In this document: positions 5,238 through 60,445 of the stretch, in pieces
How the letters are laid out: each line of letters begins with the position of its first letter
How positions within the stretch are numbered: position 1 is the first letter of the stretch
NCBI GenBank assembly: GCA_018368455.1
Contig: JAGZEG010000005.1
Coordinates: 104,654-168,653, forward strand
Source of the DNA: Coriobacteriia bacterium
Lineage (GTDB): Bacteria > Actinomycetota > Coriobacteriia > Coriobacteriales > UMGS124
Length of the DNA: 64,000 bases
Direction: 5' to 3'
Notes under the pieces: generated by a model
What the model saw: the letters and a program-made list of their open reading frames with translations, nothing else
Databases searched by the model: none
Told to the model about the DNA's origin: nothing
Translations under genes and position numbers: made by a program

Positions 5238-5313
5238 CGGCGTTTGGCCGGCGCGGCTGCGTTCCTGGGAGGGCGCTCAAGGATGGCTGGCCTGATGCCC
5301 TGCATGGGCCCTC

Positions 5314-5355
5314 CATCCCCGGGTGCCATCAAGATTGGGATGGTACCCGGGGATG
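5314..5355. terminator. Hairpin between convergent genes, a possible bidirectional terminator or module junction
   Basis: catccccgggtgccatc / ggatggtacccggggatg gives a ~17-bp stem with one G:U and a 6-7 nt loop. There is no flanking U-run on either strand. Confidence 0.35.
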
Positions 5356-5421
5356 CGCGGGGCGGCATCTGACGATGCTCAGAAGAAGGTCCCACTCGAG
5401 ATCATGCTCGTGGCGGATTTG

Positions 5422-6753: not shown

Positions 6754-8062
6754 TGGATGCACCGCTGTCACCTGTGGTGGGCTTCTTCTGTTTGGAGGAG
6801 AATGCCGCCTTGAATCCCTCCACGGCTTCTTCCGCGTCGGGCATTCCCTGGACGTAGTCCCTCAACAGCGGCTCGAGGTAGTCCTCCCAGAGCTCATTGG
6901 GCTTGAGTTCCTGCAACTTCTTGAAGTATGCTGCGCCTATCTGGTAGTTCCGACCCAGCTCACTGGTGTCTTTTATCGCCTTATTCAGGGATTTCATGCG
7001 ATCAATGGCATCCTGATATTCCTTTGCATCCAAGCCCTTTAGTGCATCCAGGCAGCTGTCAGCTTCGAGCTCTATGAAGCGGAACCTGCGGCGCATGGCG
7101 AAGTCGAAGCTGTCCACGGAGCGGTCGATGTCGTTCATCGTGCCGATGATGTACACGTTCTCTGGGATGTAGAAGCGCTCGCTCAAGTCATCGTGCAGGT
7201 TGGAGTACTGGGTCGACACCGCGCCCGACTCACCGCGATAGCCCGGGTCGATCGAGAAGAACAGCTCGCCGAAGATCTTCGAGATCTCCCCGCGGTTAAT
7301 CTCGTCGATGATGAAGACATAGGACTCGAGTTGAGGGATCGTGCCGGATGAGGTGCTCGCGGCGTGTTGCCGCTTCACGCGGCGCTTGCATATCTCATGG
7401 TACACGCCCCAATAATATGACCAACTGCTGTTCTGACGGTTTTTCCCAAAGAAGAGGGCAACTTCTCCGGGTCCTTCGAAATCCTTACCAGACTCGAGCA
7501 TCCTGGGAATGTAAGATGTGAATAGAGTTTTTCGATTGGATGATGCGTTGTTAGGGATAAATACATGGATGAGTCGTTCGCCTACGTCAGTGATAACGAA
7601 TTCTTTTCCCGTCTTTATCTTGAAAGGCGTTGATCCCAGCTCAATGCTTGAAAAGAACGAGCTCATCTCCTCCTGCGCGGACCGCTCTTTTGCCAGTTCG
7701 TTCGCGTCTTTGTGCGAGTCTTCCCAGTTCTTTCGGGCGCGATCGACAAAGCTCTTGAAGATGCCGTCACGCAGCTCGAAGCCCATAGACCCGTCGTCGT
7801 TCACCATCGGGCGCAGGCCCTCGACGAAGTCGGTGTAGTCATAGCTCGGGTGAAACTGCACGAACTCGATTCTTTCTTTTTGCTCGCTTGTGAGGTCCTC
7901 GTATTTCTCGCACGTGCCGTCGCTGACGATGTCTGCAGCTATCTGTTTTGCGAGATAGGACTTCCCGGTGCCGGGTGCCCCGTGAAAGATGACGTTCTTT
8001 GATTTACGTACTATAGTTGAGTAGTCATTAATAGTTTTTGGTTTATCCATAGGACTCTCCAT
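6743..8062 (-). CDS. mcrB: McrB-family AAA+ GTPase (system 1). It has no N-terminal DNA-binding domain but a large insertion inside the AAA+ core.
   Basis: FHGAPGTGKSY, FVQFHPSYDYTDFVEGLRP, FIIDEINRGEISKIFGELFFSID, and NVYIIGTMNDIDRSVDSFDFAMRRRFRFIEL. ATG 8050 has the better RBS (GGAGAG); ATG 8062 is the track start. Confidence 0.9.
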   Translation of the reverse strand: MESPMDKPKTINDYSTIVRKSKNVIFHGAPGTGKSYLAKQIAADIVSDGTCEKYEDLTSEQKERIEFVQFHPSYDYTDFVEGLRPMVNDDGSMGFELRDGIFKSFVDRARKNWEDSHKDANELAKERSAQEEMSSFFSSIELGSTPFKIKTGKEFVITDVGERLIHVFIPNNASSNRKTLFTSYIPRMLESGKDFEGPGEVALFFGKNRQNSSWSYYWGVYHEICKRRVKRQHAASTSSGTIPQLESYVFIIDEINRGEISKIFGELFFSIDPGYRGESGAVSTQYSNLHDDLSERFYIPENVYIIGTMNDIDRSVDSFDFAMRRRFRFIELEADSCLDALKGLDAKEYQDAIDRMKSLNKAIKDTSELGRNYQIGAAYFKKLQELKPNELWEDYLEPLLRDYVQGMPDAEEAVEGFKAAFSSKQKKPTTGDSGASNEN

Positions 8063-8113
8063 TTTATTTCAATTCTGGGGGTATATATACGAGCCTTTTT
8101 GCCGGTACCCGTG

Positions 8114-8152
8114 CTCGCCTGGGGCTACCACAATGGCAAAGTCCCAGGCGAG
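8114..8152 (-). terminator. Weak hairpin after the nuclease gene
   Basis: ctcgcctggg / cccaggcgag gives a 10-bp stem with a 19-nt loop. No U-run follows. Confidence 0.3.
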
Positions 8153-8159
8153 TCCACCC

Positions 8160-9425
8160 CTAGAAGGTGATTCCGGCGACGCGGGCTGCGTACTCCTCGG
8201 GGAGCTTCGAGAACAAGTCGCGCTCGAAAGCTTTGAGCTGACTCAGGGCTTTGTCCAGGGAGGCGAAAACCTCGCCGTCCGTAAAGCCCTCTTCAAAGGA
8301 CTTGTTCTGGGAGTAGTTCCAGTGCACCCTCCAAAGCCAGTTAGCCCCTTTCTTCGCCGACCCCTTCGTGGGGTAAAGGTCATTGATGGCCTCTGCAATT
8401 GCCTCCTGGTCCGATGGTAGCCCTTGATGATTGAGGGCCAATTTAATGCGCATCTTGGCGTTTCCCCGAGCACTGCCTCTCCCGCGCTCTATTTCGAAGA
8501 AGTAATGGTTGGCCGTTGACCAGCCGCTGTTTGCTTCCGGGCCATCGGGCAACAGCAGGGACATCTCGGGTGTGGTGAAGCGGGTGCAGGTCTTCACACA
8601 TTTGTCCTCATTCAAGATGAGCTCGCCGGAGCGCTGCTTCTCCCGGGCCCACCTAACGCAGGCATCTGCAAGCTCGGAGATCGCGTCGGGCAGGTTCTCG
8701 TAGATCAGGTCAAGTGCCCGTCGGTGCCTCGCGTATATGTCCCTGCAGACCCTCGCAAGCTCCTCGTCCTCCAAGACATCCCTCCTTATCGTGTCGACGT
8801 AGTCGTCGATGAGCATGCGCGGTCCCTCGGCAAGCTCGGCCCCGTCGGTTGCCGATCCGATGATTCTCAGCACGTCCTCGTAGCTCATCGGGAACCACGT
8901 GTCGGGGTCTGAAGCTTCGGCACCCTCCGGGGAGAGATAGACGAAGCGTCGGCGGAAGCCTGGGTAGGCGTGCTCGATTGTCTTTCGATACCTATCAAGC
9001 TGGTTGTCGTGCTCCCCGGTGCCGATCTTGTTTTCGATGCACAGGACGTATTTTTGGGTTTCTGAGACGGCTAGGATGTCGATGCTCTGCCATTCGCGCA
9101 GTACCGCGAAGTCGCGACAGTCCATGAGCAGGTCATCGAAGGCCTCCGCGTCGGGCAGGGACTCTGCCACGTGGCGCACGAAGCCCTGCATGACCCGGTC
9201 ACCCAGGCCGTGGTTCCCTTCGGGGTCCATGAGCCAGGCAAGGGCATTGCTGTGCCTGATCTCCACCCGGGAGATGCCGAGGACGTCGAACGTGTTGAAG
9301 CGCCTCGTCCATTTCGAAAGGCGATCGAGGCAGCCGATGTCCAGCAGGAAACGCCGGATACACTCCTCGTCCGTTCCCTGGGGATCGAGAGAAGCTGGGG
9401 CAGATTGATTGCCGCTTTCTAGCAT
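8160..9425 (-). CDS. PD-(D/E)XK nuclease family protein. The N-terminus is PDDEXK_4-like and the C-terminal part is DUF4268-like.
   Basis: FNTFDVLGISRVEIRHSNALAWLMDPEGNHGLG, followed by DILAVSETQKYVLCIENKIGTGEH (a D...E-x-K core). Family names are recalled from memory, not searched. Confidence 0.75.
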   Translation of the reverse strand: MLESGNQSAPASLDPQGTDEECIRRFLLDIGCLDRLSKWTRRFNTFDVLGISRVEIRHSNALAWLMDPEGNHGLGDRVMQGFVRHVAESLPDAEAFDDLLMDCRDFAVLREWQSIDILAVSETQKYVLCIENKIGTGEHDNQLDRYRKTIEHAYPGFRRRFVYLSPEGAEASDPDTWFPMSYEDVLRIIGSATDGAELAEGPRMLIDDYVDTIRRDVLEDEELARVCRDIYARHRRALDLIYENLPDAISELADACVRWAREKQRSGELILNEDKCVKTCTRFTTPEMSLLLPDGPEANSGWSTANHYFFEIERGRGSARGNAKMRIKLALNHQGLPSDQEAIAEAINDLYPTKGSAKKGANWLWRVHWNYSQNKSFEEGFTDGEVFASLDKALSQLKAFERDLFSKLPEEYAARVAGITF

Positions 9426-9443
9426 AAGCCGCAGCCCTCTCTT

Positions 9444-10370
9444 CTAGGATTTATCCTTCGTCTGCTCCCCAAGAAGACGGTCGTACTCGTTGACGAGGTC
9501 GTGCAGGAACGCAGCTCCTGCCTCGGGATCGCTCGTGACGAAGGAATCGAACGGATAGGCGGTTTTGTCGCCATTATAATAAGTCGAGAGGAGCGCTCTG
9601 GGCTCCGAGTCGTCGGCCTCGGGGCTGCCCGGGGCTGCAGGTGCAACGCCTGGATGAGAGGGGAGCACGGCGCTGGTGGCCCGGATGCCGAGGTCTCGCG
9701 CGATGTCTGGTGGCGTTGGCTGGACCTGATCACTGAGCCCGAATTTTAACTCGTCAAATGCATTCAGCTGCCAGACGTTTCCCTCTCTGACTGTTATGGC
9801 TGCCGGATAGTACGAGTTGTGACGGCCCTTCAGGGCCCCGATGTCGAAAGGCGCCGGTCCTAACTTCTTCCCTATGGGCCGGGGATCGCCAGGGAAGAAA
9901 CGGCGCAAGGCCTCGTGGGCGCGCTCCAACTGCGGGGCGTACCGGGCGATGGCCTCCATGACCTGTTCGCCCATCAGAGTATTTCCCGGGGTCCAGCCAA
10001 GGGAGCCATCTGCGTAGCGAAGCACGGGGGTCGGAAGATAGAGATAACTCTGGAGAGAATAGCTGTCCAAATCATCAAGATCATCGAGGGTGGCCTGATC
10101 GATCAAATCCGAAGCCTCGAATCTCATCTCGATGCAGCAGTCTGTTCCTTTGATTGGGGCCTGCAGGAGGAGATCCCCGTGGAGTCCGGTATCTCCTTTT
10201 CCCACGTCGAGATCACACTGCGAGACGTGCCAACCATCGTATTCGCTTTCTCCGAGGCGCGTCTCCAGTTCATCGACCTGTTGCCAGAGCTCTTCAATGT
10301 AGGAATTTACCTCATCGAGGGACTGCCGGATGGTGCTGAGCGCGCTCATTAGCGTCGACATGTATTGCAT
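9444..10370 (-). CDS. Hypothetical 308-aa protein with an N-terminal coiled-coil-like segment
   Basis: ATG 10370 has RBS GAAGGAGGGGG; the upstream extension in the track lacks one. The stop lies 18 nt before the nuclease gene start. N-terminal segment reads LDEVNSYIEELWQQVDELETRL. No motif recognised. Confidence 0.65.
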   Translation of the reverse strand: MQYMSTLMSALSTIRQSLDEVNSYIEELWQQVDELETRLGESEYDGWHVSQCDLDVGKGDTGLHGDLLLQAPIKGTDCCIEMRFEASDLIDQATLDDLDDLDSYSLQSYLYLPTPVLRYADGSLGWTPGNTLMGEQVMEAIARYAPQLERAHEALRRFFPGDPRPIGKKLGPAPFDIGALKGRHNSYYPAAITVREGNVWQLNAFDELKFGLSDQVQPTPPDIARDLGIRATSAVLPSHPGVAPAAPGSPEADDSEPRALLSTYYNGDKTAYPFDSFVTSDPEAGAAFLHDLVNEYDRLLGEQTKDKS

Positions 10371-10676
10371 GGATACCCCCTCCTTCTCTGGTGTGATTAT
10401 CCTCGCTCGTCGGCAGCGGGTGGATGGCTTTCGTATCAAGAAATACGTCTTTGATGACGGCGGCGCCTCTCCGACCGTAGCCTCGTGACGAGGCCTTCTG
10501 ATATGGTGCGGGGCCGCCTACCCACAGCCCCGCGAGTTGGCTGACGGCACCTGGTCGACGCGACCGTGGCCCCAGGAGAGCACTCGCGACGCTCGTGATC
10601 CGCGGCATCCAAACTCGCTCGATAATCGAGTCCAAAATGCCTCGAAAATCGAGTGTGAATTACCTCGAAAATCTAG

Positions 10677-10952
10677 TATGAGCAGATAGTTGATGCTGAC
10701 GGGCTTGAAGTCGACGCCATTATCGAGCTGAGGGATGGGCGTTGGGCGGGCATCGAGATCAAGCTGGGGGAGGAGAAAGTGCCGGATGGCATCGCAAATC
10801 TCAACCGGCTACGCAAGAAGGTCGCCGCGAACCCGGCGGCGCGCAATCCCCGCCCTGAGTTCATGGCCGTGGTGACGGCGACCTCCCCCTTCTGTCGCTA
10901 TGATGCCGAGAATGACGTGTATGTGTTTCCGATTACCGCCCTGAGGGCATAG
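10677..10952 (+). pseudogene. 3' fragment of a DUF4143-type AAA ATPase gene (about the last 90 codons only)
   Basis: An open frame without a start codon reads YEQIVDADGLEVDAIIELRDGRWAGIEIKLGEEKV...VYVFPITALRA*. This matches the C-terminal restriction-endonuclease-like DUF4143 module. An in-frame TAG lies at 10674. Confidence 0.6.
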
Positions 10953-10961
10953 GGGAATCCG

Positions 10962-12404
10962 CTATGCCCTCAGCGAGTCTCTAATCCCTTCCAGGAGCTC
11001 CCCGATCGTTCCCCTTTGGTTACCTGGGCCACCTTTGGGTGCTGTCCCCGGCAGTATGGAGCTCTCGCTGTGGAGGGACAGGTCGAGCATGAAGACTCTA
11101 ACGCGGAGCCCTCTGCCATCCGCCCCATCGCTGACGAACTTCTTCTGCCAGCCCGCCATAAGCCCTTGCGACTTTGGATATACCAGCACGACGTCGCTGA
11201 CCTTGTAGCGCTTGCCATAGGCGTACATCTGATAGAGGTCGTTTCGCGACGGTTGCGGGTTGCTACCGTCTAGCCGCTTCCACTTGGTGTCAAGGACGAC
11301 AGCAGGCTTCGGCTGGCCTCCCGCCTCTCGCTTCAGTATGACGATGTCAGGCGTCATCCTGATCCCGGCCCCGTCGCCTTCTTTTTTGTCGAAGAGATCC
11401 CGGACGGGCCCCTGTGTGCGGATCTCGATTGCCGACCCGTCGAGCGCCCCATTTTGCAAGGCCCGCCTCATGAGGTAGGGCACGTAGTCCTCGAAGACGC
11501 GCTCCATCGGGAAGAGTAGGGCTTCGCTGACTGTGGGGCCACTGAAAGCGGTGAATGAGCTACCCTCCAGGAAGATGCGCGCCCACTCAAGGGCCTGAGC
11601 GTAGTCGTCGAGGTTGCGATCTCGAACGCAGAGTGACGCCGCCTTGCGCCAGTCGGGCGTATCGTCCACGCCATCGAACATCGCCAGGAGCCTGCGGATA
11701 CGCGTGCGGTTCTCGGAGCTCGTGCTCCTGTTGAGCAGCCGTGCGAGCGCCGCCTTGATGACGCGGTTCTCCGGGCGGTTGAGCCCAAACACGGCGTGGC
11801 GCACGAAACACCGCGACCGGTCGATGGGATTGGCCCGCAGGTCTTGCGCCACGAGGAGCCGACCGCGCAGAAAGCGCTCGTTAGAATCGCGCGGGGTGTA
11901 CCCGGAGCGCAGGCCGCGCTGGGCGAGTCGTTCGACCTCCTCGACGAACATGCGGATGAACAGCTCGTAGAGCGGCATGCGATGGGAGAACAGCGACGAG
12001 CGCCCCAAGTGCTTGAACGAGGTGCCGCGCAGAGCTGCGAGCATGCGGATGAAGGCCTCTTTCGTTTGCTCGAGGCCGTCGCTTGAAGGGCGCTCGTTGC
12101 TGGCGGTTTCCAGGTCGAGCCCCGCTATCTTTGGCAGAATCTCGACGGTGAATCCGTTCTTTGTGGTGAGGACGCCCACGTAATTGCGCGCTTGGATCGA
12201 GCGCTGGCGTTCTGCCATGCCCAGGCGCATGATCTCGATGGGGTCCTCCGAGTCGACGTCTCGCTCTGCCGCTCGAAGGATGAAGTCATAGAGCTGGTTG
12301 AAGGCGTCTTCTTCCATGGACGTGCAGCCAGGACTCGGGCTGTCCTGGCTGCCGTCACTTACGAGCTTGTCGAACTCGCGGATTTGAATGAGGTTGCGAG
12401 GCAT
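10962..12404 (-). CDS. mcrC: McrC-family nuclease subunit (system 2)
   Basis: MPRNLIQIREFD... N-terminus and C-terminal core TPDIVILK...VVLDTKWK...LYQMYAY. ATG 12404 lies 1 nt after the mcrB stop (TAAcATG). The 141-aa upstream extension in the track overlaps mcrB and is rejected. Confidence 0.85.
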   Translation of the reverse strand: MPRNLIQIREFDKLVSDGSQDSPSPGCTSMEEDAFNQLYDFILRAAERDVDSEDPIEIMRLGMAERQRSIQARNYVGVLTTKNGFTVEILPKIAGLDLETASNERPSSDGLEQTKEAFIRMLAALRGTSFKHLGRSSLFSHRMPLYELFIRMFVEEVERLAQRGLRSGYTPRDSNERFLRGRLLVAQDLRANPIDRSRCFVRHAVFGLNRPENRVIKAALARLLNRSTSSENRTRIRRLLAMFDGVDDTPDWRKAASLCVRDRNLDDYAQALEWARIFLEGSSFTAFSGPTVSEALLFPMERVFEDYVPYLMRRALQNGALDGSAIEIRTQGPVRDLFDKKEGDGAGIRMTPDIVILKREAGGQPKPAVVLDTKWKRLDGSNPQPSRNDLYQMYAYGKRYKVSDVVLVYPKSQGLMAGWQKKFVSDGADGRGLRVRVFMLDLSLHSESSILPGTAPKGGPGNQRGTIGELLEGIRDSLRA

Positions 12405-12405
12405 G

Positions 12406-14670
12406 TTATGCGTCCGCATCCTCGTCGCTGGCTTGGTTGCTCTCGTCGGCGGCTGCCTCGGGCTGGCGAGACCTATAGGGACCGAAGCTCTCGTAGATGC
12501 GCCGGAAGTCGCTTGCGGACCACGCATTGCCGTCCGTCCTGTCGATGACCTCGAAGCGCGCTCCGACGGTATCTGCCATGTTGTCGAGAATTCCGAGGTC
12601 GATCCCGAGGGACTCGCTCTCGTCATCTCCGATCTTGTGCACGAACTTCCCGTCCCTGTCGTTGAGTACGGCGCGGATGAGGTCGTAGTCCTCAAAGAAA
12701 TAGTCCTGCAGCAGCGGGATGATCTTGCCTGCGAACGCCTGCCTGATGTCGCCGAGCGAGGCGACCTTCCAGAATAGGGAGTGGCCGAGCACGTGGTCGC
12801 GGTCGAGCAGCGCCTCGATGCGCGCATTCATTGCCTGGAGCATCCAGGGGACATCGACGCCATCGACAATGCCTTCGTTTCCGAGATGGTTGCGCAGGGC
12901 GTCATAGTCTGGGCCGACCTCCTCGAACGAGAAGCGCCGCCTGAACGCCGCGTCGAGCTTGGTGAGCGAACGGTCGGCCGTGTTCATCGTCGCGATGATG
13001 TGGACGTTGCCCGGGATGCCCCACCTCTGCTTGGAGTAGGGGAGCAGGACCGTGCGCTCGTCTTCGCCACCGAGCCGCTTGTCTTCTTCGAGCAGCGTAA
13101 TAAGCTCGCCAAAGATGGCCGCCACATTTCCGCGATTCAGCTCGTCGATGATGAACACGTAGGCGTCGCTGGGGTGGTTGGCGGCTTTTTCACAGAAGGA
13201 TTTGAAGACGCCGTCTTCTACTGCGTACGCGAGTGAATGGCTGTCGTCCGGGCTGGTACGTTCCCCGTCCGTAAGAACGGGGCGAATGCCTTCGACGAAG
13301 TCCTCATACGAGAACGATTGGTGGAACGACACAAAGCCGATGCGGCCTTCATCTTCGAGAGCTTTGTAGCGATCGGAAATCTCATCCCAGTCATCGGGCA
13401 CGTCGCTGCCGATGATGCCGACGGCACGCCGTTTCGTTTGATACGTCTTTCCCGTCCCCGGCGCACCGAAAAGGACGGTGTTCAATGCAACGCTCGCATT
13501 GTTCTGGCGCATAGGCCGATCGATGACACTTGACTCTGGAGCGAGCCCTCCTCCTAGCTCATTCTGGATATGGAAAAACTGCTGCTCACTAATCTCGTCA
13601 AGAGTTATCCCTCGTCGGCCGAGATTGCCCATCGTTGAAACCTGAGAGTCATCCTTCAAGGTATTGAAAGGTACGGGATTGTTGAAATTTGCCAATCGCC
13701 TAAAATATAACGCGGATCCATCATACGGTTTGGTGGCTTGTAATACGGAACAGGCTGCCTTAATAGGCGTTGCCATATATGCAATAAAATAGTCACCTGT
13801 ATTTATATGCTTAAAACAATCTATTTTTTTCAGGCTTTTTCCATTTTGTCTTTTGGTGTGAAAAATCATTTCCTCGTCAGTGGGGGACTGGCGGGGATCC
13901 CATTCTCTCGGGGAGAGGTTCAGGAACATATAACGAGGTGCGGAAGATACGTTGTTGCCGTCTTGCCTGGCGGCAGCATAAGCCCGCTCCGAGAGGTGGG
14001 GGATGTCGTCCTCAGCTAGTTTGTTTGACAAAAGAGCTTCTTGAATGCGATCTAGAGCATCAAGATACCGAGCGCCGCTGGATGAACTCCACTCGATATC
14101 AGGTATCAATGTTCTGAGCGGGCCGTACTCTTTGAGATTTCTATCAAGAGGAGGAAAAAAGTCGGGGCAAATATAGAACAAGCATTGCGGGAGATTGCTG
14201 TCCGCTACGCCCTTTATTTCAAGTGCGCGATCGTAATCTTTGTAAAAAGAATTCTTTTCTGAATCACCCTGGTTTTTACTCAGTCTCCGGGCAGACTTGA
14301 AAAGTTGCCAGAGGGCAGGGACGCTTTCCTCCTGGGAATCTGCATCTGCGAAGAGCCACCACGCATTGGCTGTGGGGAATCCGGGATAGGCGGATGGAAT
14401 GTCTCCAGAAAGATTAAGTCTTGATTTTAGCTCTAGTAGTATACTTCTTCTTGTTCTATCATTATACCTAAATATCTGAATATAAAAAGAGAACGGATCC
14501 ATGAGCGAAGGAAATAAACCGTTGTTTGTTTTTGGCCTCGCAGAGTCGGGGACAATGTTCGTCTTTATCTGTTCAAGTAATTCGATTAGCTTATCACTGC
14601 AGAATTCAAATTGAGTTAGTGATTCATTAATACTGCTAATTATATGGTAATTATGGTAATCAGGGCTCAT
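12406..14670 (-). CDS. mcrB: Long McrB-family AAA+ GTPase (system 2, 754 aa) with a ~400-aa N-terminal sensor region that includes an EVE/PUA-like module
   Basis: FGAPGTGKTY, VSFHQSFSYEDFVEGIRP, FIIDELNRGNVAAIFGELITLLE, and NVHIIATMNTADRSLTKLDAAFRRRFSFEEV. EVE-like stretch at ~13555-13941: YMFLNLSPREW...TGDYFIAYMATPIKAACSVLQAT...NPVPFNTLKD...ITLDEISEQQF. ATG 14670 has RBS GGGAGGGTGG. Confidence 0.9.
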   Translation of the reverse strand: MSPDYHNYHIISSINESLTQFEFCSDKLIELLEQIKTNIVPDSARPKTNNGLFPSLMDPFSFYIQIFRYNDRTRRSILLELKSRLNLSGDIPSAYPGFPTANAWWLFADADSQEESVPALWQLFKSARRLSKNQGDSEKNSFYKDYDRALEIKGVADSNLPQCLFYICPDFFPPLDRNLKEYGPLRTLIPDIEWSSSSGARYLDALDRIQEALLSNKLAEDDIPHLSERAYAAARQDGNNVSSAPRYMFLNLSPREWDPRQSPTDEEMIFHTKRQNGKSLKKIDCFKHINTGDYFIAYMATPIKAACSVLQATKPYDGSALYFRRLANFNNPVPFNTLKDDSQVSTMGNLGRRGITLDEISEQQFFHIQNELGGGLAPESSVIDRPMRQNNASVALNTVLFGAPGTGKTYQTKRRAVGIIGSDVPDDWDEISDRYKALEDEGRIGFVSFHQSFSYEDFVEGIRPVLTDGERTSPDDSHSLAYAVEDGVFKSFCEKAANHPSDAYVFIIDELNRGNVAAIFGELITLLEEDKRLGGEDERTVLLPYSKQRWGIPGNVHIIATMNTADRSLTKLDAAFRRRFSFEEVGPDYDALRNHLGNEGIVDGVDVPWMLQAMNARIEALLDRDHVLGHSLFWKVASLGDIRQAFAGKIIPLLQDYFFEDYDLIRAVLNDRDGKFVHKIGDDESESLGIDLGILDNMADTVGARFEVIDRTDGNAWSASDFRRIYESFGPYRSRQPEAAADESNQASDEDADA

Positions 14671-14704
14671 TTGATGCCACCCTCCCGGGCTATTAAAAAT
14701 ACTC

Positions 14705-14989
14705 CTACAGCCTATGCTGGTACGGATTGCCGGTAACCCAACCGGTGTCGTAGTTGTCGGTTGTAAAGCAAACTTTGAGATCAGCGTCGTACTGGCTGTC
14801 GACCCAGCACACGGTGGATGTGGGGCTGTCGTACTGGCTGTCGACGTAGTACCAGCGTTCGTCCCCGTTTGCGTCGCACTGATCATTGGTGACGAACGCT
14901 TTGAGGTCGGCCTGATACCGGTCGTCCGTAACAAACACCTTAATGGCGTTGCTGTCGTACTGATTGTCCGTGACCCAGATGCGTGCCAT
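14705..14989 (-). CDS. 94-aa internally repetitive protein. It resembles the DUF6150 / 7(1)-septoil-knot small-protein family as I recall it.
   Basis: RBS GAGGAGG 6 nt before the ATG. Four degenerate repeats: VTDNQYDSNAIKVF / VTDDRYQADLKAF / VDSQYDSPTSTVC / VDSQYDADLKVC, ending in TGW. It lies 34 nt upstream of mcrB system 2 on the same strand. Confidence 0.7.
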   Translation of the reverse strand: MARIWVTDNQYDSNAIKVFVTDDRYQADLKAFVTNDQCDANGDERWYYVDSQYDSPTSTVCWVDSQYDADLKVCFTTDNYDTGWVTGNPYQHRL

Positions 14990-27062: not shown

Positions 27063-27332
27063 ATGACCGTTTCATATGCGTTGCGCGTCGACGAGGACGT
27101 CAAGCAGCGGGCTTCCGAAGTCTGCAAGTCCTACGGGCTCGATCTTGCGACGGCTACTCGTGCCTTTTACGCCCAGATTGCTCGAACGAAGAGCATTCCT
27201 CTGACGTTTGCCGTCGAGGAGCCCAACGAGGAGACGAAGGCTGCACTTGCGGAGGCGAAAGAATTTGCCGCCTCGGGCCGAGAGGGGTCCTACGCATCTG
27301 CAGACGAGCTGTTCGCGGCGCTGGATCTGTAG
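27063..27332 (+). CDS. dinJ: Type II antitoxin, RelB/DinJ family
   Basis: LRVDEDVKQRASEVCKSYGLDLATATRAFYAQIARTKSIPLTF (ribbon-helix-helix pattern). 89 aa, directly upstream of the toxin. Confidence 0.8.
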   Translation: MTVSYALRVDEDVKQRASEVCKSYGLDLATATRAFYAQIARTKSIPLTFAVEEPNEETKAALAEAKEFAASGREGSYASADELFAALDL

Positions 27333-27335
27333 CCC

Positions 27336-27626
27336 ATGCTGCGAATCGAGCCTTCTCGAGCATTCTGCCGCGACGCCAAAAAGCTCAAGGCGAAGCACGC
27401 CGATCTGTCCAAACTTCGTGAGGTTGTCGAGCTTATCAGTCAAAACACCACCGAGTCGCGGGCGGAGCTGCGTCGCCATCACAAGATGCACGTTCTCTCG
27501 GGTGCCTGGGAGGGCGCCAATGAGTGCCACGTGTGCAATGTGGGGGACTGGCTACTCATCTGGACTGTCGAAGGGAACACTGCCTTCCTGGCCAGAACGG
27601 GCTCGCATGACGAGCTGCTGCGATAA
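27336..27626 (+). CDS. yafQ: Type II toxin, YafQ/RelE family mRNA interferase
   Basis: FCRDAKKLKAKH...HHKMHVLSGAWEGANECHVCNVGDWLLIW...ARTGSHDELL. Starts 3 nt after the antitoxin stop. Confidence 0.8.
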   Translation: MLRIEPSRAFCRDAKKLKAKHADLSKLREVVELISQNTTESRAELRRHHKMHVLSGAWEGANECHVCNVGDWLLIWTVEGNTAFLARTGSHDELLR

Positions 27627-27706: not shown

Positions 27707-30370
27707 ATGATGACGAAAGCTGACGAAACGCTTCCCGTTGCCAAGCGGGTTGTCCTCGCGGTGGACACGTCCACCGACATGCTGGCGTGCGCGTTGGGGC
27801 GGACGGGAGACGGCGCCTCGCTCGAGATCGTCGCTGCAGCCGATCACCTGTGCCGCCGCCAGGCCAACGTCGAGCTTGTGCCGACCGTCGACGCGCTGTT
27901 GGCTGGCGCCGGCCTGACGCGCGTTGACGTCGACGCCGTCGTGTGCGGCACGGGACCTGGCTCGTTCACGGGCGTGCGCATCGGCGTGGCGGCGGCCAAG
28001 GGTCTGGCCTGCGGCCTGTGCGTCCCGCTGTACGGGGCGTCGACGCTTGACGCCGTGGCGTGGGTCGCCTGGGACGCCGGCGTGCGCGGGCTGGTAGGCG
28101 TCGTGGGCGACGCCATGCGCAAGGAGGTCTACCCCGGGCTGTATCGGCTGGGCGACGAGGGTGTCGAGCGCCTGTTTGCCAGCGAGATCGTCTGCAAGGT
28201 GCCCGTGGCCGTCGAGGCATGGGCTGCCCGCTCCGATCGCGAGGCCATCCAGCTCACGGGCGACGGCCTCAAGAAGTACCGCGCCGCTTTCGAGGAAGCG
28301 GGCTTCGCAAACTTCGTCGACGAGAGCCTGTGGTATCCGACCGGCGAAGGCCTCCTGCGCGCGGCGGTGACCACGGCGCCGCAGCTGCTGCGTTCCCCGA
28401 TGCCTCGCGTATCTCAATACGCGTCGGCATCGGGCGCCTTGCATCTGCAGCACCGTGGCACCGCCGAGGATGATTGCGAACTCGCATCCGCCTCGGCGGC
28501 TACGTGCCGAGAAGAAGACACCCCGACGGCGCCCACGGTGCAGCAGATGCAAGGCGCGGAAGAGCGCCGCGTGGTAAGCCACGCAAGCTCTCCCGCAACG
28601 CCGCAGATGCTGTGCTGTGGTGCGCCGTCGGGGGATCCGGCGCTGGTGCTCCCGATCTACACCCGCCTCTCGGACGCCGAGGAGAACGAGCGCGTGCGCC
28701 TGGGTATCGCTGAGCCGGCGAGCGTGCGCGTGACGGGCGTCGACGACGACCTCGGCGACATCCACGTGCAGCAGCGCCCCATGTCCGTCAACGACCTTGC
28801 CGCCGTCGCCGACCTCGAGGCGCGCGCGTTTGACCCGGCGAGCGGCCACAAGGCGTGGACGCAGGCCATGTTTGCCGACGAGTACGCACAGCCCAGTCGC
28901 ACGTGGTGGGTCATCCATGACCAGGGCACGATCGTCGGCTTTGCCGGCGGCCTCATCGTCGACGGCAATCTCGAGGTGCTCGACGTCGCCGTCGACCCCG
29001 ATCGCCGCCGCCAGGGCCTCGCGAAGCGCCTGCTGTCGCGCATCGCCTATGACGCGCAGATGCTCGGCGCGCGCACGTCGACACTCGAGGTCGCGCGCGA
29101 CAACGTGGCGGCGCGGGCGCTGTACGAGCAGGTGGGTTTCGAGGTCGTCGGCGTGCGCAAGGCCTACTACGGGCGGACGGCCGACGGCACGCCCCGCGAC
29201 GCGCTCACGATGAAGGCGAGCCTGCCGCTGGCTATCGACGTCGAGGCCGACGAGCCCGAGCCTCGTCCTGCCGAGCGCGTCTGGCCGCCGGTCGAGCCGG
29301 AGCGCACGGTGGAGGAGCGGCAGGCCTTGCAGGCCGCGGGCGACCTCGTCCTGGCTATCGAGAGCAGCTGCGACGAGACGGCCATCGCCATCATCGACGC
29401 TGCGGGCGAGCTGCGCGCCAACGTCGTCTCGACGCAGATCGACTTCCACGCTCGCTTCGGCGGCGTTGTGCCAGAGATCGCGAGCCGCAAGCACACGGAG
29501 GCTATCGTCGGTGTCTACGAGGAGGCCATGGCGCAGGCGGGGGCCTCGCTGGGCCTTGCGACGGGCCCGCTGCGTCCCGAGGAGCTGGCGGCCGTGGGCG
29601 TCACGCAGGGGCCGGGCCTCGTGGGTGCGCTCGTCGTGGGCGTCGCGTTCGCCAAGGGGCTTGCGTGGGCGGCCGACAAACCGCTCGTGTGCGTGAACCA
29701 CCTCGAGGGGCATCTGTTTGCCAACCTGTTCGAGACGCCCGACCTCGAGCCGCCGTTCGTGGCGAGCCTGCTGTCGGGCGGGCACACGATGCTTGTGCAT
29801 GTGAGGGCGTGGGGCGACTACGAGGTGCTGGGGCAAACACTCGACGACGCAGTGGGCGAGGCGTTTGACAAGGTAGCCAAGGCGCTGGGCCTGGGCTATC
29901 CTGGCGGCCCGGTCATCTCGAGGCTGGCGGCCAAGGGTAATCCGAAGGCGATTGACTTCCCCCGGGCCATGCTGCACAGCCACGACTACCGCTTCTCGCT
30001 CAGCGGGCTCAAGACGGCCGTCATCACGTACATCCAGCAGGAGAACGCGGCAGGGCGGCCCATCAACCTGCCAGACCTCGCGGCGAGCTTCCAGGCTGCC
30101 GTCATTGACGTGCAGGTGTCCAAAGCGTTGACTGCATGCAAGCAGTTTGGCGTGCGCGAGTTCTGCGCCGGGGGTGGCGTGACGGCTAACCCCGCACTGC
30201 GCGAGGCGTTCGCCCGCGAGCTCGGTAAGCGCCGCATTCGCGTGACGCTGCCCCCGCGCTCGACGTGCACGGACAACGCGGCCATGATCGCCCTGGTGGC
30301 GAAGCGCAAGCTCGAGCGCGGCGAGACGAGCCCGCTTACCGCCGACGCCGATCCGAACATGGGGCTGTAG
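27707..30370 (+). CDS. tsaB/rimI/tsaD: Single-ORF fusion TsaB - RimI (GNAT acetyltransferase) - TsaD
   Basis: TsaB: LAVDTSTD...GTGPGSFTGVRIG...PIYTRLSDAEE. RimI (~28760-29230): LEVLDVAVDPDRRRQGLAKRLL...LEVARDNVAARALYEQVGF. TsaD (from ~29341): LAIESSCDETA...GGVVPEIASRKH...LSGGHT...GGVTAN. No stop codon between the modules. The start (ATG 27707, 27710 or 27671) is uncertain. Confidence 0.85.
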   Translation: MMTKADETLPVAKRVVLAVDTSTDMLACALGRTGDGASLEIVAAADHLCRRQANVELVPTVDALLAGAGLTRVDVDAVVCGTGPGSFTGVRIGVAAAKGLACGLCVPLYGASTLDAVAWVAWDAGVRGLVGVVGDAMRKEVYPGLYRLGDEGVERLFASEIVCKVPVAVEAWAARSDREAIQLTGDGLKKYRAAFEEAGFANFVDESLWYPTGEGLLRAAVTTAPQLLRSPMPRVSQYASASGALHLQHRGTAEDDCELASASAATCREEDTPTAPTVQQMQGAEERRVVSHASSPATPQMLCCGAPSGDPALVLPIYTRLSDAEENERVRLGIAEPASVRVTGVDDDLGDIHVQQRPMSVNDLAAVADLEARAFDPASGHKAWTQAMFADEYAQPSRTWWVIHDQGTIVGFAGGLIVDGNLEVLDVAVDPDRRRQGLAKRLLSRIAYDAQMLGARTSTLEVARDNVAARALYEQVGFEVVGVRKAYYGRTADGTPRDALTMKASLPLAIDVEADEPEPRPAERVWPPVEPERTVEERQALQAAGDLVLAIESSCDETAIAIIDAAGELRANVVSTQIDFHARFGGVVPEIASRKHTEAIVGVYEEAMAQAGASLGLATGPLRPEELAAVGVTQGPGLVGALVVGVAFAKGLAWAADKPLVCVNHLEGHLFANLFETPDLEPPFVASLLSGGHTMLVHVRAWGDYEVLGQTLDDAVGEAFDKVAKALGLGYPGGPVISRLAAKGNPKAIDFPRAMLHSHDYRFSLSGLKTAVITYIQQENAAGRPINLPDLAASFQAAVIDVQVSKALTACKQFGVREFCAGGGVTANPALREAFARELGKRRIRVTLPPRSTCTDNAAMIALVAKRKLERGETSPLTADADPNMGL

Positions 30371-55491: not shown

Positions 55492-56769
55492 ATGTCCGAA
55501 ATCAGTGCCGGCGACACCGCGTTTATCATCATCTGCGCGTTTCTGGTGTTCGTCATGACGCTCGGCATTGCCTTCTTCTACGGAGGAATGGTCCGGCGCA
55601 AGAACGTGGGTAACACGATGCTCATGTGCACGAGCGTCGCGGGCCTCATCAGCGTGCTGTGGGTGGCCGTGGGCTACTCCCTGGCGTTTGGTAGCGGCTT
55701 CGCGACGACTGATGCTGCGGGCGAGTCGGTTGCCAACCCGATTCTGGGCGGCCTTGATCGCCTGTTTCTTTCGGGCATCACGATCGACACGGCGTGGGGC
55801 ACGATCCCCGAGTTTGTGTTCGCGCTGTTCCAGTGCATGTTCGCTCTCATCACGATCGCCATCATCTCCGGCGGCATCGTCGAGCGTATGCGCTTCAGCC
55901 GCTTCCTCATCTTCATCGCGTGCTGGTTGTTGCTCGTATACGCACCGCTGGCTCACATGGTGTGGGGCGGCGGCTGGATCGCGACGACGCTCGGCGCGTA
56001 CGACTTTGCCGGCGGCGACGTCGTGCATATCTCCTCGGGTGTCACGGCGCTCGTGCTTGCGCTTGTCATCGGGCCGCGCAAGGGCAACGGCAAGCTGACG
56101 TATCAGCCACACAACATCCCGTTTGTGCTGCTGGGCACGCTGTTCCTGTGGTTCGGCTGGTTCGGCTTCAACCCGGGCTCGGCTTTGGCGGCTAACGGTC
56201 AGGCTGGCCTGGCATTCGCGACGACGAACACCGCAGCTGCCACGGCGATGCTGGCATGGATGTCCGTCGAGCGCCTGTGCACGGGCAAGGTGACGCTGCT
56301 CGGCGCGTGCTCCGGTGCGGTTGCGGGCCTCGTGGCCATTACGCCCGGCGCGGGCTACGTCGATGTGTGGGCGTCGGTCGTCATGGGCGCGATCGTGGGT
56401 GTCGTCTGCTACTTCGCGGTATCCAAGCTCAAGAAGCACTTCGGCTACGACGACGCGCTCGACGCGTTCGGCGTGCATGGCATCGGCGGCATGTGCGGCA
56501 CGGTGCTGACTGGCATCTTCGCGAATCCCGCCAACTACAGCGACCTGACGGGCCTGCTGTACGGCAACCCGATGCAGGTCGTGGCGCAGCTCGAGTCCGT
56601 GCTGTTCGTCATCGTGTTTGCGGGTGTGATGGCGTTCGCCATCGCGAAGGTCATCCAGCTGGTTGGCGGCCCGCTGCGCGTCACGGAGCGTCAGGAGGCC
56701 GTGGGCCTGGACGTGTCCGAGCACGGTGAGCCTGCGTACCCTGCGTTCAGCGGTATGGATCTCAACTAA
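55492..56769 (+). CDS. amt: Ammonium transporter
   Basis: About 11 TM segments, with DFAGGDVVHISSG and AFGVHGIGGMCG signatures. Confidence 0.95.
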   Translation: MSEISAGDTAFIIICAFLVFVMTLGIAFFYGGMVRRKNVGNTMLMCTSVAGLISVLWVAVGYSLAFGSGFATTDAAGESVANPILGGLDRLFLSGITIDTAWGTIPEFVFALFQCMFALITIAIISGGIVERMRFSRFLIFIACWLLLVYAPLAHMVWGGGWIATTLGAYDFAGGDVVHISSGVTALVLALVIGPRKGNGKLTYQPHNIPFVLLGTLFLWFGWFGFNPGSALAANGQAGLAFATTNTAAATAMLAWMSVERLCTGKVTLLGACSGAVAGLVAITPGAGYVDVWASVVMGAIVGVVCYFAVSKLKKHFGYDDALDAFGVHGIGGMCGTVLTGIFANPANYSDLTGLLYGNPMQVVAQLESVLFVIVFAGVMAFAIAKVIQLVGGPLRVTERQEAVGLDVSEHGEPAYPAFSGMDLN

Positions 56770-56806: not shown

Positions 56807-57187
56807 ATGAAGAAGATCGAGGCGATCGTCCGTCCCGAGGTCATCGAGGACATCAAGAACGCGCTGTTCGCGGCTGATATCGAGGGCATGACGATCTCGC
56901 AGGCACTGGGCGCGGGCAACCAGCACGGGTGGACGGAGTACTACCGCGGCACCGAGGTGCTCGTGCAGATGCGCGCCAAGGTGAAGATCGAGATCGTGCT
57001 GCCTGACGACGAGGTCGACACCGTCGTGGATACGATCATCGGCTCGGCGAAGACCGGGACGGATGGCGAGGTCGGTGACGGTAAGATCTTTATCTACCCG
57101 GTCGAGGAGGCCATCCGTATCCGTACGGGCGAACGTGGCGACGCGGCCATCCTGACGAGCAAGAAGGTCGCGGCCGGCGCGGCGTAA
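56807..57187 (+). CDS. glnK: P-II nitrogen regulatory protein (amt-linked)
   Basis: MKKIEAIVRP. T-loop GNQHGWTEYYRGTE. GDGKIFIYPVEEAIRIRTGE. Confidence 0.95.
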   Translation: MKKIEAIVRPEVIEDIKNALFAADIEGMTISQALGAGNQHGWTEYYRGTEVLVQMRAKVKIEIVLPDDEVDTVVDTIIGSAKTGTDGEVGDGKIFIYPVEEAIRIRTGERGDAAILTSKKVAAGAA

Positions 57188-57218
57188 GGGACGTCCGAGG
57201 CATAGCGAGCTCCGTCTG

Positions 57219-57257
57219 GGTCCCGCGCCTCTCGAGAGGGAGGCGCGGGACCTTTTG
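57219..57257 (+). terminator. Rho-independent terminator after glnK
   Basis: ggtcccgcgcctc / gaggcgcgggacc gives a perfect 13-bp stem, then ttttg. Confidence 0.75.
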
Positions 57258-57331
57258 CGTCACATGGCCGATGATGTGGGCGAAGGGGTGTCTGCGCGGG
57301 GGGACCGTCCCCGGTGCGCCTTCGTTTACTG

Positions 57332-57591
57332 GGCGCGATTTTCGGTTGTGCCAGGTTTTGCAAACGGAGCTCCCAAAAATGGCCTCGAATTGCGGACGTG
57401 CTAGGTTTGTAGGCTCGATGTCACTGCCTGTGTGCTATGCGCCTAGAGAAACCTGCAGGTAGAAGAGCTGTATGTCTTGAGGTGCCCTCGTCTTGCGCGA
57501 AAAAGGACGGCGCAAACCTAGCACTACCGTAATTCGCGCCCATTTCTAGCCCCGCATTTTGCAAGACCTGGCATAACCGTAGAATTCGGCC
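57332..57591. repeat. ~260-bp imperfect inverted repeat (arms ~78 nt, spacer ~103 nt), MITE-like or a long hairpin
   Basis: The left arm (57332-57409) reads ggcgcgattttcggttgtgccaggttttgcaaacggagctcccaaaaatggcctcgaattgcggacgtgctaggtttg. The reverse complement of 57513-57591 reads ggccgaattctacggttatgccaggtcttgcaaaatgcggggctagaaatgggcgcgaattacggtagtgctaggtttg. By-eye identity is roughly three quarters. Confidence 0.7.
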
Positions 57592-58303
57592 AAGTCTCTC
57601 TGCCTCGGTTTCTTGGGCTAGCCGAAGATCCAGGCGATGCTTTCGACTACAAGTCTATCGCTGCCCGTTGCGTCGGTTTGCTGGACGGCTGGGTGCCGGT
57701 CTCATCTCGGGTGCTGCCTCTCGGCGGGCCACTTTCAAGCAGTTGGGTGGAAGAACCGCCTGAACGGCGTCGCGCACCGGCACCTGTGCGGTGTTGCAGG
57801 GGCCAGTTTGCACGAAATCGGCCCGTGATGGCCTGGAAAGCCGTCTGTGTATGGCGCATACCGATATGCCCTGCTGGTGCGGCTCCCTTTTGAGGCCGTC
57901 GGCCTGGCTTTAGGGTGTCGTGCATGTACATGATCGACTTTTTTGCCCAAAAATCGAGCCTTCGCCTGCAGAAGCCCAAGTCGCCGGCTCTGATCGCTTC
58001 ATTGTTGCGGCGCTTAGGCTGTTTCGGGGCGAATCGATCCACGCTGGCCTTGCGGATCGTGGATGGCGTGCTTTTCGATGGCTTGCTAGGCGATTGGAAA
58101 CAGACGGCGTGATGTTTCCGACGCCTGCGGCCCGTTGGGGTCATTCTGTCGGGCGAGCTCTGGCCAAATGAGGCCCGTCTGCGCGAGGAATCCCGAATCT
58201 CTTTTCTGCTGGTTGCAGGCGGAATGGCTTGTCCATGCGTCACAATGGGACGCGTTGCTTTCGTTGGTTTGCGGTATCGTGGGCCGTAGGGGGAGGGATG
58301 TGC

Positions 58304-60445
58304 ATGCGTCGCGTTCTGTGCTTTTGCGAAAAGTGGGAGTCTGGCGGTATCGAGGCATTCCTCACGAGTGTCTACGAACGCATGGATCTTTCTGACCTCC
58401 GTATCGATATCGTGACGTGCCAGTACGCGCCGGGCATCTATGACGAGCGTCTTGCGCGGGTGGGCCTGAGCGTGCGCGTTCTATCTGGTAGCGTGCGCAA
58501 GCTGGGTCGTAATCTCAGGCTGTATCGAGAGCTGCTCGCCAAAGAACGCTATGACGTAGCGCACCTGAACCTGTATGAGGGCGCGGGCCTGCTCTTCGCA
58601 GCAGAGGCACGTCGCGCGGGCGTTCCCAAGATTATCGTCCACAGCCATAACACCGACCTGCATCCCGGTATGCTTCGTTCCCTTAAGCTGGCGGTGCACC
58701 GCAGTTTTGTGCGGCGGTATGCGGGGCAGTCCGATGTGCGCTGGGCGCCGTCGGAGGTGGCAGCGCGCTTCTTGTTCGGCGACCTGCCCTGGACGCTTTT
58801 GCTGAATGGCATCGAGCCGGGGCGATTCGCGTTTGACGCTGAGGCACGCACCAAAGAGCGCGCGGCGCTGGGTGTTTCCGAGGATCAGCTGCTCTTGGGC
58901 TGCGTGGGACGCTTGTGCGCCCAGAAGAATCAGGCTTTCTTGATAGATCTGCTCGCGGAGATCCCCCGCGCAGCTTTGCTCCTTGTGGGTAAAGGCGAGG
59001 ACGAGTCGATGCTACGGGTCCTCGTTGCCGAGAGGGGCGTGGTGGACCGCGTGATATTCGCGGGGACGATCTCGGATGTGGCCCCGCTCTACAGCGCGAT
59101 GGACGTCCTGTGCGTCCCCTCGCTTTTTGAGGGGCTCGGTATCGTGGCGATCGAGGGCCAGGCGGCTTGCTTGCCGGTTCTTTGCTCACCAGCGGTTCCT
59201 CCCGAGGCTCACGTGACCGAGCTCTGCGAGTACCACGAGCTCGGACATAACGCGTGGGGAGAGCGCTTGGCTAAGATGACGGCTGATCCCGGTGCGCGCG
59301 AACGGCTCTCAAAGGACGTGCGGAGCCGTCTCGCCCTGGCGGGGTACGACATCCAGGATACGGCGAGAAAGATCTGGACGTCGTACTGCAACGACGGGGG
59401 CATCGGCAAGGAGCATGGGGAATCTCGTTTGGACGCAATACCTGGCAGGACGCGCATGGATTCTGATGACACGGGCGGCTGTTTGGCAGATGCCCTCGTC
59501 AGCATCATCGTTCCCGTCTACCAGGTTGAGCCCTATCTTGCGGACTGCCTTGATAGTCTGCTAGCGCAAACATACAGCAATCTGGAGATCATCCTGGTGG
59601 ATGACGGCTCAACTGACGGAAGCGGTAAGCTGTGCGATGCCTATGCAGAGCGTGACGGGCGCGTTAGAGTCATACATCAGAAGAACGCCGGTCTCTCTGC
59701 CGCCCGCAATGCGGGCTTGGACATCGCTCGGGGAGATTATTACGCTTTCGTGGACAGCGACGACGTCGTAAGCCCGTTCTTTGTCGAGACGCTGCTGGGC
59801 CTGGATGCCGATATCGCCCAGTGTGGTTTCTCTACCGAGGAAGAGGGGCTGGCGCCTGACGACCAGTGCTTGCCTGACAGCGTAGAAAGGCTGTCTGGCC
59901 GTGACGCGTGTGAGGCTCTCGCGCGAGACCGAACGGGCTCATACACCGTCGTTTGGAACAAGCTGTTTAGGCGGCGCGTGTTCGATGACCTGAGGTTTCC
60001 CCAGGGCAAACAGCACGAGGACGAGTTTGTGAGCTGGCAGGCCTTCTGGAGCGCGTCTCGCGTCGCCATAACGGAGGCTCCGCTTTACTTCTATCGCCAG
60101 CGGCCTGAGAGCATCATGGGCCGAGGAGTGAGTGAGAAGAGCTTTGATGCAATCGATGCGTTGAAGGAGCGCAAGGAGTTCTATCATCTTCAAGGGGACA
60201 AGCAGCTAGAAGACCTGACAGCCGCGACGCTGTGCCATCGCATCCAGGCTATTGCCCTGGATTATCGGGATGCCGACGGGAAGCAGCGCGGTCTTACGGC
60301 GGTTCTTCGACTCTCGTTCGGTGAAGCACTTCGCTCTCCCTATGTGTCCCTGCGCTCTAAGTTGATTTTAGCTATTCGTATGTTCAGGCTGTCTTTAACG
60401 CAAAGGCTTGCTTGTGATAATCGTAGCAACGCGACGAATAGATGA
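58304..60445 (+). CDS. Bifunctional glycosyltransferase: GT4 (GT-B, family-1-type) fused to GT2
   Basis: N-terminal half: RVLCFCEKWESGGIEAF...VPSLFEGLGIVAIEGQA. C-terminal half: VSIIVPVYQVEPYLADCLDSL...VDDGSTDGS...FVDSDD. ATG 58304 lies 6 nt after GGGAGGG. Confidence 0.8.
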   Translation: MRRVLCFCEKWESGGIEAFLTSVYERMDLSDLRIDIVTCQYAPGIYDERLARVGLSVRVLSGSVRKLGRNLRLYRELLAKERYDVAHLNLYEGAGLLFAAEARRAGVPKIIVHSHNTDLHPGMLRSLKLAVHRSFVRRYAGQSDVRWAPSEVAARFLFGDLPWTLLLNGIEPGRFAFDAEARTKERAALGVSEDQLLLGCVGRLCAQKNQAFLIDLLAEIPRAALLLVGKGEDESMLRVLVAERGVVDRVIFAGTISDVAPLYSAMDVLCVPSLFEGLGIVAIEGQAACLPVLCSPAVPPEAHVTELCEYHELGHNAWGERLAKMTADPGARERLSKDVRSRLALAGYDIQDTARKIWTSYCNDGGIGKEHGESRLDAIPGRTRMDSDDTGGCLADALVSIIVPVYQVEPYLADCLDSLLAQTYSNLEIILVDDGSTDGSGKLCDAYAERDGRVRVIHQKNAGLSAARNAGLDIARGDYYAFVDSDDVVSPFFVETLLGLDADIAQCGFSTEEEGLAPDDQCLPDSVERLSGRDACEALARDRTGSYTVVWNKLFRRRVFDDLRFPQGKQHEDEFVSWQAFWSASRVAITEAPLYFYRQRPESIMGRGVSEKSFDAIDALKERKEFYHLQGDKQLEDLTAATLCHRIQAIALDYRDADGKQRGLTAVLRLSFGEALRSPYVSLRSKLILAIRMFRLSLTQRLACDNRSNATNR

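Follow-up and report, generated by a model that had tools for sequence, protein, structure and literature searches.

Organization of the intergenic region downstream of glnK

The window analyzed here is a 64,000-nucleotide stretch of a Coriobacteriia genome, and the feature of interest is an imperfect palindrome of 263 bp (57330-57592), with termini 5'-TG...CA-3', that lies between glnK and a glycosyltransferase gene. On the upstream side, groES-groEL and a gene for an HtrA-like protease lie 5' of amtB (55492-56769), which is followed by glnK (56807-57187). The GlnK protein has counterparts at NCBI in the metagenome-assembled genome proteins MBS5450492 and MBS5478179. On the plus strand, glnK is followed by an intrinsic terminator (57219-57256), consisting of a perfect 13-bp stem with an 8-nt loop (57219-57252) and a TTTT tract, and this terminator is conserved in every contig compared. 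On the downstream side, a plus-strand gene for a 713-residue GT4-GT2 fusion glycosyltransferase (58304-60445) opens a strain-variable glycopolymer locus. As the genes 3' of it encode a UDP-glucose dehydrogenase and then a TupA-like ATP-grasp enzyme, the product of this locus is assigned as a cell-wall glycopolymer. The gap between glnK and the GT4-GT2 gene spans 57188-58303 (1,116 bp) and is non-coding. The palindrome begins 143 nt past the glnK stop codon and ends ~700 bp before the start of the GT4-GT2 gene.

Four copies of one module make up the palindrome

The inverted repeat proposed in an earlier note on this DNA is real, both by alignment of its arms and by folding. The arms can now be refined to 57330-57409 and 57513-57592: 80 nt each, 74% complementary, and separated by a 103-nt spacer. 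The longest perfect match between them is 12 bp. Across the palindrome, the GC fraction dips to 0.53-0.57, as compared to 0.62-0.69 in the flanks.

A second inverted-repeat register, together with alignment, shows that each arm consists of two related modules of ~35 nt in direct orientation with a 50-bp period, which makes the palindrome a 2+2 array of a single module. From left to right, the components are: the outer left module A1 (57330-57364, plus strand, TGGGCGCGATTTTCGGTTGTGCCAGGTTTTGCAAA), with its core at 57343-57358; the inner left module A2 (57380-57409, plus strand, TGGCCTCGAATTGCGGACGTGCTAGGTTTG), with its core at 57393-57408; a unique 103-nt center (57410-57512); the inverted inner right module B2 (57513-57542, minus strand), with its core at 57514-57529; and the inverted outer right module B1 (57558-57592, minus strand), with its core at 57564-57579. 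The 16-nt core common to all four is CGGNNRTGCYAGGTYT, and over the full modules 16 positions are invariant (TGG.C ... CGG...TGC.AGGT.T).

The relationship between modules was evaluated by comparing pairwise Smith-Waterman scores with those of random segments of the window. The scores for B1-B2, A1-B1, A1-B2 and A2-B2 were never attained by random segments, and the similarity of A1 to A2 has P=0.0025; the A2-B1 pair alone is at chance level (P=0.44). The palindrome has a predicted folding energy of -128.5 kcal/mol for the plus strand (z -8.5 as compared to shuffled sequences) and -114 kcal/mol for the minus strand (z -5.9).

No family of degenerate repeats fills the surrounding region

The earlier note had described ~1 kb in which degenerate members of a single repeat family are packed together, at least four related units in all. 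Two of these units, the inverted-repeat arms, stand; the other two do not, and the only related sequences in the region are the four modules of the palindrome. When a profile hidden Markov model (HMM) of the modules was run over the entire 64 kb with filters off, it recovered the four modules at E-values of 1e-9 to 7e-8 and nothing else, even at E<=100. The proposed third unit (57795-57850) scores no better than random segments (P=0.13), and the fourth (57935-57975) is marginal at best (P=0.05-0.10). A similar stretch reported at 10625-10660 reaches P=0.004 when treated as one pre-chosen segment, a value that is not significant because the segment was picked from a search of the whole window. 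The proposed recurring core, AATYSGRGCC, occurs 22 times where 34 occurrences are expected, and is thus, if anything, under-represented. Likewise, the core pattern CGGNNGTGCYAGGTYTTG, searched across 64 kb with up to three mismatches, matches the four modules at zero to two mismatches and otherwise yields two chance matches with three mismatches each. As there are no further copies, the "packed region" shrinks to one palindrome with internal 2+2 structure, and this correction of the 1-kb region is the main practical result.

At 10639-10685, the window contains two adjacent direct repeats of the form CCTCGAAAATC[G/T]AGT[G/A]TGA. These repeats have no relationship to the modules of the palindrome and lie between an open reading frame (ORF) on the minus strand (9444-10439) and a McrBC-family gene.

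Coding potential of the gap

The earlier claim that the gap (57188-58303) contains no credible ORF is supported by three observations. First, when ORFs are filtered by positional GC, the flanking genes are recovered and no ORF is selected within 57188-58228. Second, neither the ORFs of at least 60 residues in the gap nor a stop-masked translation of the six frames matches a Pfam family at E<=1. Third, an arginine-rich ORF of 198 residues on the minus strand (57647-58243), which is called by some annotators, is judged spurious: it belongs to no Pfam family, its only match among 5.8 billion proteins is itself, and in a second strain group it is broken by a 232-nt indel, the length of which is not a multiple of three. 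A hand count of the 25 inter-strain substitutions in 57595-57955 distributes them 7/8/10 across the three phases; this lacks 3-nt periodicity and is therefore not codon-like. With no protein similarity in any of the six frames or for the 198-residue ORF, the possibility that the region is a pseudogene of a known protein was rejected. Searches for tRNA genes and tandem repeats in the region found neither.

The 232-bp indel (57956-58187) is present in window-type strains and absent from strains of the type represented by contigs L003, L004 and L007. It has neither terminal repeats nor a target duplication. This difference between strain groups shows that the distal part of the leader region can be dispensed with.

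The palindrome diverges more slowly than neutral proxies

Between the two strain groups, the palindrome differs at 10 of 267 nt (3.75%). The differences are evenly spread, with 3/82 (3.7%) in the left arm, 4/103 (3.9%) in the center and 3/82 (3.7%) in the right arm, such that the center is conserved to the same extent as the arms. The rest of the intergenic DNA differs at 50/615 positions (8.1%), and third codon positions of amtB, glnK, the glycosyltransferase gene and the UDP-glucose dehydrogenase gene differ at 141/1691 (8.3%). In this comparison of two haplotypes, the palindrome is slower than both other intergenic DNA (Fisher P=0.019) and third codon positions (Fisher P=0.006); its divergence is about half that of these neutral proxies and close to the overall rate of the neighboring genes. 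In the four 16-nt cores there are no inter-strain substitutions as compared to ~5 expected (P=0.004, post hoc). The slow divergence argues for some function.

Distribution of the palindrome

Contigs from many samples encode the exact GlnK protein, and the palindrome is found in the nine contigs that cover the intergenic region, at the same site and in the same orientation. These represent two haplotypes. A candidate third, contig L047, was rejected, being identical to the window apart from one base in glnK.

Species with GlnK proteins that are 79-89% identical retain the groEL-htrA-amtB-glnK arrangement, and the DNA 3' of glnK is entirely different in each. Depending on the species, glnK is followed by polysaccharide loci (DegT/ATP-grasp or Wzz/CpsB/NusG-like), by LuxS, by FAD oxidoreductases, or by two tRNA genes. 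As the sequence after glnK differs in every lineage examined, this position marks a rearrangement hot spot. Neither the modules nor any long inverted repeat is present in these species. Homologs of the glycosyltransferase (66% and ~50% identical) head similar loci, and the 460-510 bp upstream of them lack a palindrome. The two tRNA genes directly follow glnK in contigs L033 (3900-4075) and L035 (1830-1967), in which GlnK is 85-86% identical; their anticodons, read by eye, are GTG and CTT.

Larger collections were scanned with a degenerate two-module pattern that demanded exact cores. Under this requirement, no true match was found in 185,579 GTDB representative genomes, among which the species of the window did not itself come up, and IMG/VR gave zero matches. 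Individual hits were discarded as chance: one in GTDB is a Prevotellaceae tandem repeat, and eight in JGI metagenome contigs were dismissed by their HMM scores. A blastn search of plasmids and phages also gave no match. The palindrome is thus lineage-restricted and single-copy in what was searched, which for this species comprises the 64-kb window and a few short contigs.

One contig departs from this pattern. Logan contig L009 (sample SRR33398661) is identical to the window through 57341, the twelfth nucleotide of module A1; from the position of window 57342 it continues for 26 nt of unrelated AT-rich sequence (GTTGATGTGCAATAAGAAATGGTCCG, L009 4542-4567) and then ends. This tail was not found in the window, in IMG/VR or in any locus compared. 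It could represent an insertion into A1, the breakpoint of a locus replacement, or an assembly artifact at the hairpin. The variant diverges within A1 and is not an empty site.

Promoter-like sites

A match to a sigma-70 promoter (TTTGCA-16-TAGAAT, 57558-57585, plus strand) lies inside B1 and faces the glycosyltransferase operon. Its predicted start, at ~57592, coincides with the right edge of the palindrome. No other sigma-70-like match occurs in 1.3 kb, where 0.3 are expected from shuffled sequences, and this one hints at an outward promoter. Module A1 has a weaker version that faces left. No promoter-like site precedes the left arm or occurs in the 103-nt center, and the -10 hexamers are poor in three of the four modules.

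Closer to the gene, a 34-nt block on the plus strand (58229-58262) is 85% identical to L030 2781-2814, which lies upstream of the 66%-identical glycosyltransferase homolog in another lineage. This block is the only upstream sequence common to the window and the loci of the glycosyltransferase homologs. It contains a -10-like CACAAT (CACAATGG) ~60 nt before the start codon, and at the equivalent place contigs L031 and L032 have TACAAT (TACAATGC). The block probably serves the glycopolymer operon as its proximal promoter or leader.

A model for the origin and retention of the palindrome

Taken in aggregate, the data lead us to favor, tentatively, a model in which the palindrome is a DNA-level array of protein-binding modules that is now retained and that looks like a defunct non-autonomous transposon reduced to its paired, multi-site ends. 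If this model is correct, the history of the element likely involved: binding of the four modules by one sequence-specific protein, with the modules arranged as in Tn7/Mu/IS21-type transposons, in which both ends carry several sites; loss of the interior, leaving a MITE-like (miniature inverted-repeat transposable element), non-autonomous remnant; arrival of this remnant, on its own or with the neighboring locus, at the junction of groESL-htrA-amtB-glnK and the variable glycopolymer genes; and retention in one Coriobacteriia species. The likely reason for its retention would be that the element now supplies regulatory DNA, in the form of the outward promoter-like site in the right outer module.

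The palindrome is a member of a known general kind, the intergenic palindromic elements, without an identifiable family. Bacterial elements of this kind include the Neisseria Correia elements, the enterobacterial ERIC/IRU sequences and the pneumococcal RUP. MITE-type elements are 100-300 bp, intergenic, bounded by terminal inverted repeats and able to form a long hairpin; some carry outward promoters, and they are multi-copy with target-site duplications. The palindrome is similarly short, non-coding, intergenic and foldable, with terminal inverted repeats in the form of its arms. Unlike MITEs, it was found in one copy and lacks a target duplication, and its arms are unusually long (80 nt) and internally repeated. 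The suggestion in the earlier note of a MITE-like family is thus divided by these results: a multi-copy family is unsupported because no further copy appeared, whether in the window or in the collections scanned, and a non-autonomous or decayed mobile origin for the palindrome itself remains a live possibility.

The closer likeness is to multi-site transposon ends, such as the TnsB sites of Tn7, L1-L3/R1-R3 of Mu and the multiple terminal repeats of IS21. In these systems, each end carries direct sites of ~20-35 bp, the two ends are inverted with respect to each other, and the tips are 5'-TG...CA-3'; Tn7 inserts at glmS. The palindrome reproduces this arrangement, with two direct and two inverted modules on a regular 50-bp period and TG...CA tips, and like Tn7 at glmS it sits just downstream of a conserved gene. 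Decayed mobile DNA, another alternative raised at the outset, stays in contention as a source of the element. The low GC content relative to the flanks, the rearrangement of this junction between species and the lack of substitutions in the cores are also in line with the model, as are the slow divergence of the whole element, its absence from the related species examined, the outward promoter-like site in B1 and the lack of both coding potential and an Rfam family. In contrast to Tn7, Mu and IS21, the palindrome has no associated transposase, no 5-bp target duplication and no similarity to plasmid or phage ends, and only ~100 bp separate its two ends.

Several observations weigh against a transposon-end origin. 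No target-site duplication, for which the earlier note had suggested looking, is present at either plausible boundary (the flanks are TTTAC | AGTCT in the window and TTTGC | GGTTT in the L003 type); an old duplication may have eroded. No empty-site allele was seen; both strain groups carry the element, and at one position. No transposase or recombinase was identified by Pfam among the 49 window ORFs scanned. The lack of a second copy, in the window, in the related loci compared and in the genome, plasmid and phage collections, is also unexpected. Purifying selection would not be anticipated for a dead element unless it had been exapted, and here the promoter prediction consists of one consensus match, with a conserved promoter-like block already present at 58229-58262. 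As for the identity of the modules, sigma-54 promoters, DnaA boxes, parS sites and integron attC sites were considered and dropped as unfit in order or consensus.

If the palindrome is a stranded pair of transposon ends, it would mark a recombination junction at which loci have been swapped. If it is functional, it would offer a handle on the control of a strain-variable surface polymer in uncultured gut Coriobacteriia, with relevance to interactions with host and phage. The wider significance is modest, as on present evidence this is a single orphan element.

Alternative explanations

Among the alternatives, the strongest is a native, non-mobile cis-regulatory array, a possible explanation that we nonetheless consider unlikely. 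Here, the four modules would be operator/promoter sites, arranged as divergent tandem promoter-operator units, and the protein binding them would regulate the glycopolymer operon and perhaps also an antisense transcript into glnK. Such an array would account for a core that is conserved four ways without inter-strain substitutions, for the regular 50-bp spacing, for the promoter-like site in B1 with its weaker left-facing counterpart in A1, and for the position upstream of a surface-polymer operon. Less readily explained are the lack of an adjacent regulator gene and the poor -10 hexamers in three of the four modules. In addition, homologous glycosyltransferase operons elsewhere lack the element and have in common only the proximal block near -60, and the array would act from ~700 bp before the gene start, across an interval in which a 232-bp indel is tolerated.

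A structured RNA, also anticipated in the earlier note and still a live alternative for the palindrome, is rather doubtful. By this explanation, a plus-strand transcript, produced when transcription passes the glnK terminator or as part of a long operon leader, would form a long hairpin of ~265 nt that acts, for example, as an RNase III or processing site or as a regulatory leader element. Long-hairpin RNAs and leaders are associated with polysaccharide operons, as in the LoaP- or RfaH-dependent leaders. The palindrome resembles these in its place within a long untranslated region before a glycopolymer operon, in its strong predicted fold and in its slight bias toward G-U pairs on the plus strand. 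In keeping with transcription of the plus strand, that strand folds better (-128.5 versus -114 kcal/mol), five of seven transition mismatches between the arms become G-U pairs on it, and of the six paired positions that differ between the strain groups, five keep its pairing by way of G-U, a weak signal (P about 0.04-0.11). Conservation of the whole block, center included, about twofold above neutral proxies would also follow.

Other features fit an RNA poorly. The strongly negative z-score is expected of any 80-nt inverted repeat, and zero double compensatory changes separate the two haplotypes. A pure RNA hairpin needs no likeness between the two modules of one arm, so that this likeness and the invariant core are left unexplained by pairing. 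The sole promoter-like site, in the right arm, would start a transcript from which the hairpin is excluded, and a strong terminator lies directly upstream of the element with none after it. In the folding and Rfam comparison that had been proposed earlier, the palindrome folds far better than shuffled sequence and matches no Rfam family. Rfam 15 gives no match in the window at gathering thresholds and none for the hairpin even at E<=10; the lenient matches in the region are to gyrA RNA, on the glnK terminator (19 bits as compared to a gathering threshold of 45), and to a miRNA model (E=2). Unlike the LoaP and RfaH leaders, the palindrome has no Rfam match, NusG paralog in view or promoter upstream of the hairpin, and homologous operons lack the element.

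It is less probable again that the palindrome is a functionless relic, produced by local tandem and then inverted duplication at a recombination-prone junction and now decaying. Its single copy in everything searched would be expected of a relic, as would the lack of a target-site duplication, a cognate enzyme and a known family. The arms are only 74% alike, and the ~900 bp around the element are non-coding, specific to the species and able to accommodate a 232-bp indel. Decay without constraint is hard to reconcile with divergence at about half the neutral proxies (P=0.006-0.019) and none in the cores, or with the preservation of both the symmetry and the regular 50-bp period.

Still more speculative is the proposal that the palindrome is something new in kind. 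It might be a functional, lineage-specific regulator of the glycopolymer operon, acting as a ~265-nt long-hairpin RNA or as a four-site nucleoprotein switch; or, taken with a second long palindrome in tsaB (28370-28621, below), it might reflect an undescribed palindrome-seeding process. We regard this as improbable.

Finally, an inverton, in which an invertible promoter would give phase-variable expression of the surface glycopolymer, is highly improbable: invertons are reported across phyla, Actinobacteria included (PMC11602134), and in a gut bacterium, an inverted repeat that precedes a surface-polysaccharide operon variable between strains recalls the Mpi-controlled promoters of Bacteroides fragilis, but unlike those, the repeat here is long and degenerate (its 12-bp longest perfect match gives no sign of homogenization by recombination), the promoter-like site is in the arm and not in the segment that would flip, all nine assembled contigs, from different samples, show one orientation, and no recombinase was found in the window.

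Other features of the window

The window has another long, imperfect palindrome at 28370-28621, with no sequence relationship to the first. Its arms are 89 nt and 72% complementary, with a 74-nt spacer, and each arm is itself a hairpin; as RNA, it has a predicted folding energy of -184 kcal/mol (z -12.5). It is in frame (~87 codons without a stop) inside a fused tsaB-rimI-tsaD gene, where it directly follows the part with structural homology to TsaB/YeaZ and precedes the PIYTR motif at the C terminus. The palindrome is identical in four other contigs, and a contig from the same sample as L009 breaks in its center. The arrangement recalls palindromes that are inserted in frame, the Rickettsia palindromic elements being an example. 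By gene calls, a relB-yafQ toxin-antitoxin pair (~27063-27626) is wedged between tsaE and the tsaB-rimI-tsaD fusion.

Closer to the start of the window, 2395-14934 encodes an FtsK/SpoIIIE-family protein, two McrB/McrC-like pairs (AAA_5 and McrBC) and a PD-(D/E)XK nuclease, and looks like a defense island with a conjugative-element-like translocase.

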